In this document: positions 20,727 to 52,597 of the stretch, in pieces
How positions within the stretch are numbered: the stretch's first letter is position 1
Layout: each line of letters begins with the position of its first letter
Source of the DNA: Candidatus Levyibacteriota bacterium
Lineage (GTDB): Bacteria > Patescibacteriota > Microgenomatia > Levybacterales > UBA12049
DNA length: 64,000 bases
Assembly: GCA_027334565.1 (NCBI GenBank)
Contig: DAHWUP010000002.1
Location: 13,203-77,202 of the forward strand
Direction of reading: 5' to 3'
The notes under the pieces: model-generated
What the model saw: the letters and a program-made list of their open reading frames with translations, nothing else
Told to the model about the DNA's origin: nothing
Databases searched by the model: none
Position numbers and translations under genes: made by a program

Positions 20727-21521
20727 CTATAATCCAAAAATCTTAAAGAATAAATAATTGAGCCGGCTTTGAAAAAAAAGCGTAAGAAAAGATCCTGCAA
20801 CCAGAAAAGGTCCGAAGGGCAGTGCGCTTTGAAATTTCTTTTTTTTAAGGAAAATCAAAAACAGGGCGCCTATTGCTCCTAATATGAAGGCCAGGTAAAG
20901 CGCAATGAATATTCCGGGAAAACCAAAAAACAATCCCAAAACAAACGACAGTTTTACATCACCACCTCCCATACCTTCTTTTCTTGTAAACAAATAAAAA
21001 ATATAAGAGACTGCGACAAAAAACAGCAAGCAGCCTATACCGGAAAGCAAGTGATTTACTATCACCGAAAGCGGGTTAAAAGAAAGCCAAAGTAAAATTA
21101 AAACAATGTCGAATATTAATATCGAATCGGGAATTATGCCTTTTTTAAAATCGATAAAAAATATTAAGATAAAACTGGAAATCATGGCTAGCAGATAAAA
21201 AAAGTAAAACAAAAACCTTAAATTTATTAGCGTAAGGGGAGTAATGAATATAAAAACGGCTATTGCAAACAAAAAACCCGTTACCAACTCTATTAAGGGA
21301 TAAAATAAAGACAATTTAGTTTTGCAGTAATGACATTTACCTTTCAGATAAACATAGGAAAAAATAGGAATCAAATCATACCAGGCAAGAATGTGTTTGC
21401 AGGTCTCGCAATATGAGCGGCCTACAAAAACAGACTCATGACGGGGAAATCTGTTAATTACTACGCCTAAAAAGCTCCCGATAAATAGACCGAATAAAAA
21501 CGCAAGAAAGACGTACATCAT
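20727..21521 (-). CDS. pilD: Prepilin peptidase PilD (A24 family)
   Basis: Tetra-Cys Zn motif CETCKH...CHYCKTK and multiple TM helices. Embedded among pilin genes. Confidence 0.85.
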   Translation of the reverse strand: MMYVFLAFLFGLFIGSFLGVVINRFPRHESVFVGRSYCETCKHILAWYDLIPIFSYVYLKGKCHYCKTKLSLFYPLIELVTGFLFAIAVFIFITPLTLINLRFLFYFFYLLAMISSFILIFFIDFKKGIIPDSILIFDIVLILLWLSFNPLSVIVNHLLSGIGCLLFFVAVSYIFYLFTRKEGMGGGDVKLSFVLGLFFGFPGIFIALYLAFILGAIGALFLIFLKKKKFQSALPFGPFLVAGSFLTLFFQSRLNYLFFKIFGL

Positions 21522-47581: not shown

Positions 47582-48427
47582 ATGAAAATAGACGGCCGAC
47601 AAATAGCTGCAGACATTTTGGAAGAGCTGAAAATCCGGGTCGAAGAACTAAAGCAAAAAGAAATCACACCACGCATGTACATAATTTTATTAACGGATGA
47701 TCCCTCGACTATTTCCTATATCAAGCAGAAACTTTTATTCGGGGAGAGAGTCGGCGTAAAAATTACCGTCGACACCGAAAGTCCGGATATTGCAACGGAC
47801 AAACTCATCTCTAAAATCGAAAAACTGAATTCGGATGATTCCGTTCACGGAATCATCGTTCAGCGTCCCGCCCCCAAGCAGCTCGAAATGGAAAAAATTG
47901 ATAACTTGATTGATCCGCGCAAAGAGATAGACGGTTTTGGCAGTAACTCCCTATACAACGCACCGGTTGCTTTAGCTGTTGCTAAAATTTTAAGAGTTAT
48001 TCACGCCGGTTTATCTTCGAAAGAAAATTTTTCCGAGTGGCTTCTTGGAAAAACGGTTGTCGTAATGGGGAAAGGTCATACGGCAGGTATTCCAATCATC
48101 AATTACCTGAAAAATAATGGGTTGGAACCTATCATTATCGATTCCAAAACGACTGAAAAAAATAAATTTCTGAAAAAGGGCGATGTCGTGATTTCGGCGG
48201 TAGGGAAAGGCGGGGTAGTTACCATACGGGATTTGAAGAAAGGTGTATTTTTGATAGGAGTCGGCATGCATAAGGAAAACGACGGTAAATTCCACGGCGA
48301 TTTTGAAGAAAATGATATCTCGGACAGGGTTTCTTACTTTACTCCTACCCCCGGAGGAGTCGGCCCGGTCAACGTCGCCTGCCTTTTGCAGAATCTGGTT
48401 GAAGCAGCGGAAATTCTCTCAAAATAA
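47582..48427 (+). CDS. folD: Bifunctional 5,10-methylene-THF dehydrogenase/cyclohydrolase
   Basis: Conserved YxxK region and TPGGVGPV motif. Confidence 0.9.
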   Translation: MKIDGRQIAADILEELKIRVEELKQKEITPRMYIILLTDDPSTISYIKQKLLFGERVGVKITVDTESPDIATDKLISKIEKLNSDDSVHGIIVQRPAPKQLEMEKIDNLIDPRKEIDGFGSNSLYNAPVALAVAKILRVIHAGLSSKENFSEWLLGKTVVVMGKGHTAGIPIINYLKNNGLEPIIIDSKTTEKNKFLKKGDVVISAVGKGGVVTIRDLKKGVFLIGVGMHKENDGKFHGDFEENDISDRVSYFTPTPGGVGPVNVACLLQNLVEAAEILSK

Positions 48428-49514
48428 GAAAAACTTCTAATACCCAGACCAGAACCGTTCCGTAAAAAACATGTGAGGTGATAATTACCGGAAAATCCTG
48501 TGGATTCTTAAAGTTAAACGAAATTAGCATATAGGAGACGAATAGGACAAGAAGACCCCGATAATTTTTCTTATCCTTTAGATAAAACATGTTGAACAAA
48601 AAAGGGAAAATCATAAATACGAAATGATGCTGCCAGGAGAAATTACTGACCAGCAAACCGAGTATCACCAAAAGCGACAAATGAAGATAAATCAACTTAT
48701 CCGTTCTGGTCCTAATAATCGTCCATAAAGTGATCAGAACAAAGAACATAGTCAGGACAATTCTGACAGCTTCACGCCAAAAATGATCGCTGATAATTCT
48801 CCCGACAAATCCCGTAAGCGACTGATTGTAATAATCAAGTTTCCATCCTCCGATGAACTGAAAGACAACTTTTGTGTAAAAATAAATTACCAGCTCGGGA
48901 TAAATCAAGAAAATAATTAAGTGTAATAATACGAAAGTCAAAAATAACCAAAGCAAATATTTCCATTTTTTGAATATTAAAAAATATACAGGCAGGAAAG
49001 GAGGAAAAAACTTCATCGACAGAGATAGGACAAGGAAGACGGCGGATGAAAAAAAACGCTTATCGTTAAAAAAGTATACGGATAAACAGGTTAAAAATAA
49101 GACCAAAGTATTTATCTGTCCCATACCAAAATTAAATTTGACCGGAAAAGATAAGAATATGAAGGCAAGGACCATAAGACCCAAGCCTGAAAAAAACTTC
49201 TTTTTGGCAATTTTAAAAATTAAATAAACCGACAAAAAAAGACAAATAAGCGAAACGACAAACCAAAGCTTTTCCGCCGCAGGAAGCGGCAGGAGAATGA
49301 ACGGAAAGAAAAACATAATTGTTGCGGGCGGATAGACGTCGGGAAAGAATGCCAGACGACCGAACGTATACGGATTACCGCCTGCTAGCAAAACCTGTGG
49401 TGAATAATAATGCACTAAAAAATCGGGATAACCCGGTAAAAGAAAAGCTTTTAGAAAAATAGCAATGGAAAATATAAAAAATAATGGGGGAAAATACTTT
49501 TTGATAAATTTCAT
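48369..49514 (-). CDS. Polytopic membrane protein, GT-C/DUF2029-like (putative glycosyltransferase)
   Basis: About 11 TM helices, aromatic-rich loops. 3' end overlaps folD by about 59 nt (convergent), so the exact stop is uncertain. Confidence 0.45.
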   Translation of the reverse strand: MKFIKKYFPPLFFIFSIAIFLKAFLLPGYPDFLVHYYSPQVLLAGGNPYTFGRLAFFPDVYPPATIMFFFPFILLPLPAAEKLWFVVSLICLFLSVYLIFKIAKKKFFSGLGLMVLAFIFLSFPVKFNFGMGQINTLVLFLTCLSVYFFNDKRFFSSAVFLVLSLSMKFFPPFLPVYFLIFKKWKYLLWLFLTFVLLHLIIFLIYPELVIYFYTKVVFQFIGGWKLDYYNQSLTGFVGRIISDHFWREAVRIVLTMFFVLITLWTIIRTRTDKLIYLHLSLLVILGLLVSNFSWQHHFVFMIFPFLFNMFYLKDKKNYRGLLVLFVSYMLISFNFKNPQDFPVIITSHVFYGTVLVWVLEVFLILREFPLLQPDSAKGRRR

Positions 49515-49600
49515 ACAAACATTAAATAATTAAATATTGAATATGTCAACCGTACCGTAAACTTGACAAGTAGGGTAAAATTTACAACAATAATGTTAAT

Positions 49601-50173
49601 ATGGCAAGAAAGGGGTATGGGTTTTCGGACAGATTTCCCCATGTAGGGTTATTTTTTATTATAGCTCTGATACTTGCGATTCCTCTTACGGTCTGGTCTT
49701 TAAATAACGCTTCTACCAATTTTATACAGCAGGCGCAATCGTTTAAATGCGGGCCATTTAACAATAATCCTGCCTGTCCGCCAGGTTTTAAGTGCGAATA
49801 CAACGCAAATACCGCCGTTTTAGGTGGCAGCTGCAATCTGGTGGCATTGCCGGCCCCGACCGGCTTAACTACGGCGTCAAGCTGTATTTCAAATCTGGGT
49901 ATGCCCAATCAGGCTACATTTTCCTTAAGCTGGAACAGGGTGAATTACGCAACCGGTTATAGAGTCTACGGCAATTACTATTATTTCGACGGGAAAAACC
50001 TATCCGATGTTAAAGTCGGACCTTACCGAACAGATACCAATTCATATACTCTAAACCTGCCCTTACCGCGTGGGGTCAGTAATTTTTACTGGTATACCGA
50101 TGCGTATAATTCCGTTTACAACGTCATTAGTCAGCACAGCGCATTATCAACCGGTGCCTTAAATTGCCGCTAG
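49601..50173 (+). CDS. Secreted/anchored Cys-rich protein, paralog A
   Basis: Conserved N-terminus RFPHVGLFFIIALILAIPLTVWSLNN (TM/signal anchor), then 8 Cys. The same N-terminal module occurs in the 50221 gene. Confidence 0.5.
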   Translation: MARKGYGFSDRFPHVGLFFIIALILAIPLTVWSLNNASTNFIQQAQSFKCGPFNNNPACPPGFKCEYNANTAVLGGSCNLVALPAPTGLTTASSCISNLGMPNQATFSLSWNRVNYATGYRVYGNYYYFDGKNLSDVKVGPYRTDTNSYTLNLPLPRGVSNFYWYTDAYNSVYNVISQHSALSTGALNCR

Positions 50174-50220
50174 TTAAAAAATACTTGACATAAAGCTGAA
50201 AATAAATTAATAATATATCA

Positions 50221-50637
50221 ATGGCAAAAACCAATGATTTTGCTGCTAGATTTCCACACGCGGGTATATTTTTGGTGATTGCCGTTGCTATCGCGATACC
50301 TCTTACCGTCTGGTCACTGAACAATGTCCCGACCAACACCCAGCAATTCGCGTCGGGAGGGAATAACGGACAGGGACATGCATATGGGCACCGTTATACA
50401 CCTACTCCTACACCCACGTACAGCCCTACGCCAACATATACGCCCACACCGACTCAGGCCTGCAATAGTACCGGGACCGGCGGTTGCGTGACTCCGACAC
50501 CGTCTGTTGCTTGTACTTCCTTAGGGGGCAATTGCTACAACACGGTAAGTTGTCCGATTGGAACGACTATAATTCAATCAACTTCTCCTCTTTGCAGTCC
50601 CTTGGGCTCAAATACCAGCGCTATCTGTTGCAAATGA
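50221..50637 (+). CDS. Secreted/anchored Cys-rich protein with TP-rich linker, paralog B
   Basis: N-terminus RFPHAGIFLVIAVAIAIPLTVWSLNN matches paralog A. Contains TPTPTPTYSPTPTYTPTPT linker and a Cys-rich C-terminus. Confidence 0.5.
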   Translation: MAKTNDFAARFPHAGIFLVIAVAIAIPLTVWSLNNVPTNTQQFASGGNNGQGHAYGHRYTPTPTPTYSPTPTYTPTPTQACNSTGTGGCVTPTPSVACTSLGGNCYNTVSCPIGTTIIQSTSPLCSPLGSNTSAICCK

Positions 50638-50678
50638 ACCCACTTGACACCTTAAAATAAATTAACTAGGATGAAGGT

Positions 50679-51467
50679 GTGAGTAAATTCTACAAGCGGT
50701 TTGAAGCACAAATTGTAACCATAGTTTTAATTCTCATCGGCGTATTTTTATACATCAAGGTCGCCGGTCCGATCCCGTTTTTCATCAATAGCGTTCAAAC
50801 GACCAAAACGGATCTGTTTTCCTCCGACGGTGAGGGAACGGTTACAGCCGCTCCGGATACAGCGGAAATAAACCTCGGCGTTACCCAAACGGGAGCAACC
50901 GTTTCGGATGCGCAATCAAAGGCAAATTCTACGGCGAATAAAATAATAGCCGGTTTAAAAAAATTGGGGATTTTGGAGAAAGACGTCAAAACCACCAATT
51001 ATTCGATTAGTCCAAATTACCAATCGGCGGACATAAACGGACCTTTTCTTCCTACAAGAGGCGGGGGCATCACCGGTTATACGGTCACTCAAAACCTGCA
51101 GATTAAGGTAACTCCCATTGATAAGGTAAATAATGTTATCGATTCGGCCACCGCAGCAGGCGCAAACCTGGTAGGCGGAGTGAATTTCACTTTTAGTGAT
51201 AATCTGCAAAACAATTTGGAAAATGAAGCGATGCAACAGGCGGTTAATAACGCCAAGCAAAGGGCTCAAAATCTTGCGAGCGCTTCCGGAATAAATTTGG
51301 GAAGGATAGTGAACGTGGTCCAAAGCTCGAACAACCCAAGACCTATAACCTTTGGGGGCCCCGCGGTCGCTAATTCTACGGTCCAGGAGGCCGCGCCACC
51401 AACCGATGTCACACCGGGACAGAATACCGTTACCGTTGATGTAGTCCTTTACTACGAAACTTATTAG
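50679..51467 (+). CDS. SIMPL/DUF541 family periplasmic protein
   Basis: Signal anchor plus DUF541 pattern (GTVTAAPDTAEINLGV...ANKIIAGLKKLGI...NYSISP). GTG start preceded by TTGACA-N17-TAGGAT. Confidence 0.7.
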   Translation: MSKFYKRFEAQIVTIVLILIGVFLYIKVAGPIPFFINSVQTTKTDLFSSDGEGTVTAAPDTAEINLGVTQTGATVSDAQSKANSTANKIIAGLKKLGILEKDVKTTNYSISPNYQSADINGPFLPTRGGGITGYTVTQNLQIKVTPIDKVNNVIDSATAAGANLVGGVNFTFSDNLQNNLENEAMQQAVNNAKQRAQNLASASGINLGRIVNVVQSSNNPRPITFGGPAVANSTVQEAAPPTDVTPGQNTVTVDVVLYYETY

Positions 51468-52363
51468 CCTCCTGCATTCTGATTTTGAGAAGAGGACATT
51501 TTTTCCATCTTAAGTATTTCCTGTAAGCGTCCTTTTGCCAAATATTCATCGCCGGTATATATCGATAGCGAGTTCAACATCGACTCGTAGTCACTTAAAC
51601 CCCTATCACGATAAAGAACATAATTATCACTAATCATTTTGGCCGCAGCGGCGATCATTTCCCAGTCATCCTGATGACGTTGTGGCATACCTGCCAAGTC
51701 GGAAAACGGTTCGGAAGCTTTCTTGATGTATTCGGGGGTCCAGGTATCGATATTTATCTGTGCGATTCCGTAAATCGGATAGTTTTCCTTGCTGAAAGCC
51801 TTTTTACTTCTTGAGGCGTGGCTTTCCTGCTCAATGGTAACCATCAACACTTCCCAGGGAATGCCATAATACTGTGCGATCGGTTCAATGATAGGATAAT
51901 AGATCTTAACGTCTTTTAAGAGCTGTTCATTGGTTACCGCATGGAGAATTTGGGGAGCACTGTCTATCGCGGCAACGATTTCGCCCAAACGGACATCCGA
52001 GTTCAATTTGATTAGTTTTTCCGTGAATTGATTTGATGGTATTGATGTTGCAGGAGAACTTTGAGGTGATAAAGGTTTAAATTCATCCATAAATCCAGGC
52101 CCGGGACTATTGTCAAAAATTACATTCGAAGCCTCCCGGCTGTCATGGTTGAACCCCTGCATCCCGTCCGAAAGTACCGATGGAGTAGACGACTGATCAT
52201 CCAATACCTTCACAATAGGCACCCCGGCGGCGTCAATGATTTGGCTTTCAGGGCCTGCAACCAGCACGCCCGCCACCAGCAAGGCCGCTGCCTTGGAAGC
52301 TGCTCTTCTCCTTTTCAATCTGGTTTTTTCGTCTGTTTTGTTTATTGACTTATCTCTTTCCAT
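51464..52363 (-). CDS. Lysozyme-like / lytic transglycosylase (SLT)-like domain protein, membrane anchored
   Basis: N-terminal TM anchor. C-terminal region EQESHASRS...YGIAQI resembles the SLT/GEWL catalytic Glu-Ser and GLMQ-like motifs. Moderate support. Confidence 0.5.
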   Translation of the reverse strand: MERDKSINKTDEKTRLKRRRAASKAAALLVAGVLVAGPESQIIDAAGVPIVKVLDDQSSTPSVLSDGMQGFNHDSREASNVIFDNSPGPGFMDEFKPLSPQSSPATSIPSNQFTEKLIKLNSDVRLGEIVAAIDSAPQILHAVTNEQLLKDVKIYYPIIEPIAQYYGIPWEVLMVTIEQESHASRSKKAFSKENYPIYGIAQINIDTWTPEYIKKASEPFSDLAGMPQRHQDDWEMIAAAAKMISDNYVLYRDRGLSDYESMLNSLSIYTGDEYLAKGRLQEILKMEKMSSSQNQNAGG

Positions 52364-52597
52364 AATAATAAAAAGTTAATAAAGTAATTAACTAAACCTG
52401 TTTTTATTACCGCCACAAACGCAACGGGGAATGATGTTGTAAAACAATTATAGGATATCCTCATCTTCCTGTCAACCCCCTTTCAGCGATATTTTGGTTT
52501 GTTCTACGAATCAATTGAAATTTCGGCAGCTTATTTAAAAAAGATTTTAACTTATGCATTCTGAAATCGAGGGCCGTAAGGAGTATCCCACTGAATT

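Follow-up and report, generated by a model that had tools for sequence, protein, structure and literature searches.

Signal peptides normally drift fast. Motifs of the YSIRK-G/S, KxYKxGKxW and SipW-cognate types direct the place of export, the export route or the processing of a protein, and the Sec signal peptides that bear them are long, keep a motif beyond charge and hydrophobicity and precede unrelated mature domains. The same combination is found in two tandem genes, A and B, within the stretch of DNA analysed here (the window, 64,000 nucleotides of contig DAHWUP010000002.1 from a Candidatus Levyibacteriota bacterium). Unlike the three described types, the leader of these genes has another motif and also conserves some 12 residues beyond the canonical cleavage site; it has no linked accessory secretion or peptidase gene, and it occurs in only one to three members per genome, mostly at one locus. 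Polymorphic and cassette-type secreted protein loci likewise combine a constant N-terminus with shuffled, variable C-terminal modules and variable copy number, but we identified no toxin/immunity pair and no Rhs, CdiA or T7SS-type delivery domain here. We consider it likely that A and B, which lie in tandem, belong to an undescribed protein family of uncultivated bacteria, in which a conserved export leader of about 45 residues is placed on an interchangeable small, disulfide-bonded extracytoplasmic domain.

Gene A (49601..50173, plus strand, 190 amino acids) runs from the leader through a small four-cysteine module into a fibronectin type III (FN3) domain, and gene B (50221..50637, plus strand, 138 amino acids) from the leader through a Gly/His-rich and Thr-Pro linker into a six-cysteine knot. 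The leaders span residues 1–45 of A (49601..49735, plus strand; MARKGYGFSDRFPHVGLFFIIALILAIPLTVWS followed by LNNASTNFIQQA) and residues 1–44 of B (50221..50352, plus strand; MAKTNDFAARFPHAGIFLVIAVAIAIPLTVWS followed by LNNVPTNTQQFA). An earlier note on this DNA had described a shared N-terminal segment of about 35 residues in tandem genes starting at 49601 and 50221, followed by divergent mature domains. Both open reading frames exist, and BLASTP bears the description out, aligning residues 8–43 of A with residues 7–42 of B without gaps (23/36 identical, 28/36 similar, E 5e-15) and finding no alignment between the two proteins past this 36-residue block. Two figures in that description need correction: 190 residues is the length of the entire protein A, the mature part of which has about 145 residues and 6 cysteines, and B has 8 cysteines downstream of its leader, not 10. 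Searching the whole window with both leaders by tblastn recovers only the A and B copies, the next-best match having an E value of 0.017–0.045.

Selection at the protein level has kept this block, because synonymous sites are saturated across the 36 shared codons (pS 0.92) at a pN of 0.21. Within AIPLTVWSLNN, 6 of 11 codons differ between A and B, and every difference is silent. This saturation rules out recent gene conversion or a DNA repeat as the source of the block. A recent duplication or conversion between neighbours, spreading an ordinary fast-drifting signal peptide of no special function, would suit tandem genes with a common promoter architecture; it is nonetheless very improbable, since the amino acids are kept despite such synonymous divergence and since the motif recurs at a second locus and in 52 protein clusters whose cargo is unrelated. 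The genes also look native, because they do not differ in GC content from the remainder of the window, and we rejected a foreign origin. Homologues of A (P0002 and P0003) share 56–57% identity with it and those of B share 55% (P0007) and 49% (P0008); orthologues of A (42% identity) and B (55%) diverge only slightly faster than those of the flanking genes FolD (52%) and SIMPL (57%). Minus-strand open reading frames exist across the leaders of A (49582..49908) and B (50127..50339), and both are most likely not genes; we read them as by-products because homologues and purifying selection sit on the sense strand. Rfam and tRNA scans of the window found no RNA genes.

A profile of the leader, searched against 1.84 billion representative proteins, retrieves 52 genuine clusters (50% identity) of proteins 87–368 residues long, and every match falls at residues 1–46. 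The leader thus defines a family, as the earlier note had anticipated, and stays constant on cargo that is unrelated between members. Its consensus reads MAxKxSFxxRFPxF, a hydrophobic core, PLTVWS and (L/V)(N/Q)N(V/A)(S/P)TxTxQxA(A/S), with high information at M1, A2, K5, F9, R12, F13, P14, F16, A23, P29, L30, T31, S34, T40, T42, Q44 and A46; T40 and A46 are invariant. Conservation beyond hydrophobicity had been set beforehand as the test of the idea, and it is evident in F9, R12, F13, P14, P29, T40, A46 and other kept residues. Past column 47, where unrelated cargo begins, information drops to about 1 bit per column. Cysteines are absent from the leaders and even in number in the mature part of 53 of 56 members, a pattern consistent with export. 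The leader is portable, because in P0031, encoded at a different locus, it precedes a C39-like peptidase. Outside the profile search, a scan of a genome collection for the motif returned one species representative and a metagenome scan returned two loci; a word-indexed search with the broad leader alignment A6, too degenerate for pattern scanning, gave no matches. Searches of Pfam and NCBIfam with full proteins and 53 leaders gave no model for the leader, and we judged weak transmembrane-like matches to BTP, DUF4229 and NuoJ to be compositional.

The leader can be read as a charged cytoplasmic n-region with F-x-x-R-F-P-x-F, in which K5 and R12 are conserved, then a hydrophobic core of 12–17 residues (the hydrophobic run covers columns 16–33), a c-region, P-L-T-V-W-S, in which Pro occupies −6, Val −3 and Ser −1, and a conserved polar segment, (L/V)(N/Q)N(V/A)(S/P)-T-x-T-x-Q-x-A-(A/S), with the cargo beginning directly behind it. 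Relative to a cut after V-W-S, residue −1 is Ser in 49, Ala in 3 and Thr in 1 of the leaders, and so small in 53/53 (S/A/T); residue −3 is Val in 38, Leu in 5, Thr in 4 and Met in 3 (V/L/T/M in 50/53); and Pro stands at −6 in 45/53. By the −3/−1 rule, the leader would be of Sec type, and V-W-S would be followed by a textbook cleavage site for signal peptidase I. The alternative site, Q-x-A↓ (the arrow marking cleavage), has Gln at −3 and fits signal peptidase I poorly. An ordinary signal peptide leaves the T-x-T-x-Q-x-A segment and the cytoplasmic RFP motif unexplained, and 'ordinary Sec' is incomplete as a description.

Together with its Pro-containing end, the hydrophobic stretch measures 16–18 residues, a length compatible with an uncleaved anchor. 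The proteins would then be type II membrane proteins in which the polar segment, joined in gene B by the Thr-Pro linker, forms a stalk that keeps the binding domain at the cell surface; the juxtamembrane segment is conserved, and the Thr/Pro-rich linkers of gene B and its relatives are typical of wall-spanning stalks. We nevertheless regard a permanent anchor as rather unlikely, given that K-type leaders have a hydrophobic run of about 16 residues with Pro inside it and that nearly all members of the family have the canonical −3/−1 site with Pro at −6.

Other classes of export signal do not fit the leaders. In place of the Tat twin-arginine motif S/T-R-R-x-F-L-K there is a single Arg (R12 in 48/53), with RR in one listed member, P0011; there is no L-x-x-C lipobox, as no leader has a cysteine; and the membrane-spanning core with no GG at its boundary differs from a double-glycine bacteriocin leader, as does the lack of any ABC transporter at the leader-gene loci. 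The YSIRK, KxYKxGKxW and SipW-cognate NCBIfam models are absent among matches at E ≤ 10 for the 53 leaders. The earlier note had likened the leader to class III prepilin and to sortase or exosortase signals. The second analogy fails on position: those signals are C-terminal and the conserved module here is N-terminal, and members end in CCK or C-x, lacking the hydrophobic tail of a sortase or exosortase signal. Cleavage as a class III prepilin-like signal by the PilD of the window (homologue at 20727..21521) would account for the short charged N-terminus, the hydrophobic helix after it and the common Gly16. It is very improbable and contradicted by the data. Pfam and NCBIfam searches with full proteins and 53 leaders give no N_methyl (PF07963) match; no more than one of the 53 leaders has even a faint archaellin/pilin match (E 0.075); position 17 is Gly in 26, Lys in 22, Arg in 3 and Thr in 1, so that Gly is replaced in about half of the members and by Lys alone in 22/53; and there is no Glu in the helix and none at +5. 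The true pilins of the window carry the standard G↓FTLIEL motif and lie, with the PilD peptidase, about 29 kb away.

The sole recurring neighbour of the leader genes is a SIMPL/DUF541 gene (50679..51467, plus strand; Pfam PF04402, E 1.5e-51). Downstream DNA is readable at 10 loci, and at 9 of them this gene immediately follows the leader-gene array. Arrays of one to three leader genes with SIMPL behind them occur in the window, L001-4, a JGI contig, L005, L006, L010, L012, L013 and L015. Copy number and module combination vary between relatives at this fixed chromosomal site with conserved flanks, and the SIMPL linkage may reflect no more than conserved synteny in one narrow lineage. Upstream, a divergent GT87 (GT-C type) membrane glycosyltransferase gene (48369..49514, minus strand; Pfam PF09594, E 4e-28) adjoins the leader genes in close relatives only. 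Against a glycosylation link to this gene stand the absence of the N-x-S/T sequon from Q-K type leaders and the case of L005, where the upstream gene is a different sequence, NUDIX-like by eye. The N-terminus of SIMPL resembles the leader in layout, P(-6)-x-x-[VI]-x-S↓[LV][NQ]...T. A derivation of the leader from the 5′ end of the SIMPL gene was considered and set aside, the tblastn hint having an E value of 0.017 and the profile–profile alignment a P value of 0.15. We likewise rejected an integron-like cassette array served by the XerC-type recombinase: the recombinase lies downstream with two genes between, each leader gene has its own promoter, and the spacers measure 41–47 nt.

The earlier note took constancy of leader over changing cargo as a sign of dedicated sorting or processing. 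The conserved leader and the unrelated cargo stand; the dedicated machine is unneeded to explain export, because the leader has an ordinary signal peptidase I site, and the co-conserved peptidase sought at the loci was found at none. In its developed form the idea holds that T-x-T-x-Q-x-A↓A is a recognition strand for a specific protease or attachment system, that the RFP motif directs the protein to a particular export site, in the manner of YSIRK or SipW-cognate signal peptides, and that SIMPL is a possible partner. The invariant T40 and A46, with alternating-residue conservation as for a strand in a peptidase cleft, speak for it, as do the sharp fall of conservation exactly at the cargo start, the retention of the leader on unrelated cargo with synonymous sites saturated between the window copies, the SIMPL gene in nearly every locus and the shared layout of its N-terminus. 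Against it, the locus has no conserved peptidase or sorting enzyme; signal peptidase I is a poor fit for Gln at −3, and nothing points to another protease; the profile comparison between leader and SIMPL N-terminus is non-significant; one member, P0031, lies away from SIMPL; and the leader has no Pfam or NCBIfam model. We hold a dedicated sorting or processing signal to be possible but doubtful.

The cTTGACA promoters reported ahead of both genes are present at 49562 and 50184, and a third copy stands at 50643, before the next gene. The corresponding promoter-like sites on the plus strand are TTGACA-17-AACAAT for gene A (49563..49591, ending 9 nt ahead of the ATG, which lacks a Shine-Dalgarno sequence), TTGACA-18-AATAAT for gene B (50185..50214, 6 nt before the ATG) and TTGACA-17-TAGGAT for SIMPL (50644..50672, 6 nt before the GTG). 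Judged by sequence, all three are generic sigma-70 consensus sites; a scan of 48300..52500 counted 11 promoter-like sites, where shuffled sequences predict 9.5. In other loci, too, leader genes have TTGACA at a comparable upstream distance, and its position is conserved. With such spacing, the transcript of gene A would be leaderless or nearly so.

Cargo types across the family comprise FN3 domains as in gene A, six-cysteine knots as in gene B, a C39-like peptidase and HExxH proteins, and modules are shuffled, as shown by fusion proteins such as P0009, which join leader, knot and FN3. In gene A, the small cysteine module (residues 46–80; 49736..49840, plus strand) was delimited by alignment and the AlphaFold2 (AF2) model, follows the pattern CGP.N.NP.CP.G..C....GG.C and weakly matches Lustrin_cystein (E 0.016). 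The AF2 model of the mature part has a pLDDT of 92.3, and its top Foldseek matches are FN3 domains (E 1.5e-4 to 1e-3); a profile search against PDB sequences finds the Fn3-like 3mpc (E 0.007). From these predictions we are confident in modelling residues 85–190 (49853..50170, plus strand) as an FN3 beta-sandwich, which has a cysteine close to its start and another at its C-terminus; Pfam fn3 gave no match reaching E 1 against whole protein A. FN3 is a common binding module that gene A shares with bacterial FN3 surface proteins and phage tail-fibre proteins; unlike in those, it follows a four-cysteine module.

In gene B, the linker (residues 45–93; 50353..50499, plus strand) consists of SGGNNGQGHAYGHRY and then (T/S)P repeats, with two cysteines inside. 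The knot that follows (residues 94–138; 50500..50634, plus strand) has the spacing C-x6-C-x5-C-x13-C-x10-CC. Beta-defensins obey the rule C-x4-8-C-x3-5-C-x9-13-C-x4-7-CC, which fits P0009, P0013, P0015, P0030 and P0043 exactly; the last loop of the gene B knot (x10) is longer than this spacing permits. More broadly, the knots share the framework C-x6-C-x4/5-C-x9-13-C-x6-10-CC with animal beta-defensins and other trans-defensin-fold peptides (hBD1, hBD2, AvBD11, crotamine and tick carboxypeptidase inhibitor), and like beta-defensins they have the contexts G-G-x-C, C-P and G-T-C-G. The beta-defensin family PF00711 is the most frequent Pfam family among them (7 of 23 knots), its best match (E 0.0013) scoring below the gathering cut-off, and it has no match to the knot of gene B itself. 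Against PDB sequences, P0009 matches hBD2 best (E 0.004) and the knot family profile finds hBD1 (E 0.006) and tick carboxypeptidase inhibitor (E 0.003), and Foldseek pairs the predicted knot with hBD1 (probability 0.98, TM 0.55/0.65, 39% identity). By sequence and predicted fold, the gene B knot thus appears to resemble beta-defensin-type proteins only, at a borderline level, and the likeness may reflect either homology or convergence. Unlike beta-defensins, the knots are bacterial, lie behind leader and linker or before FN3 and are sometimes duplicated. All their scores fall under the Pfam cut-off and, unlike the strongly cationic antimicrobial defensins, they are near neutral, with a net charge of −1 to +2 in 20 of 23 and of +1 in gene B.

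To our knowledge, the trans-defensin (beta-defensin) superfamily has so far been regarded as animal-restricted. In the literature we searched, bacterial defensins are cis-defensins only (PMC11561630, PMC12766674). It is a speculative and unlikely proposition, if an attractive one, that the gene B knot and those of about 20 relatives are bacterial trans-defensins, deployed by a probably episymbiotic bacterium through a leader whose post-cleavage T-x-T-x-Q-x-A tag, with SIMPL, forms a new surface-sorting system. The defensin-like knot, itself non-cationic, lends at most indirect weight to the bacteriocin-like role suggested as a possibility in the earlier note.

Under our preferred reading of A and B as an exchangeable-cargo family with a Sec-type leader, each gene would be read from its own consensus promoter into an mRNA that is leaderless or nearly so, and the leader would take the protein through Sec. 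Signal peptidase I would probably then cut after V-W-S, so that the mature protein would begin with a conserved tag of about 12 residues; were the leader left uncut, it would serve as a membrane anchor and the polar segment as a stalk. The cargo, a four-cysteine module plus FN3 in A and a Thr-Pro linker plus beta-defensin-like knot in B, would fold outside the cell with disulfides and present a binding module on or near the surface.

A near-constant leader on unrelated cargo marks one of two things in a poorly known lineage, either a specific route of export or retention or something that its secretion machinery strictly requires, and the motif offers an easy way to find surface and secreted proteins of this lineage by sequence. 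Variation in the number and combination of cargo between relatives is the behaviour expected of proteins in contact with a host or competitor. If the knot proves to have the beta-defensin fold and the beta-defensin disulfide pairing C1–C5, C2–C4 and C3–C6, the family would add a bacterial case of a scaffold regarded as invented by animals, and would bear on the question of where trans-defensins originated.

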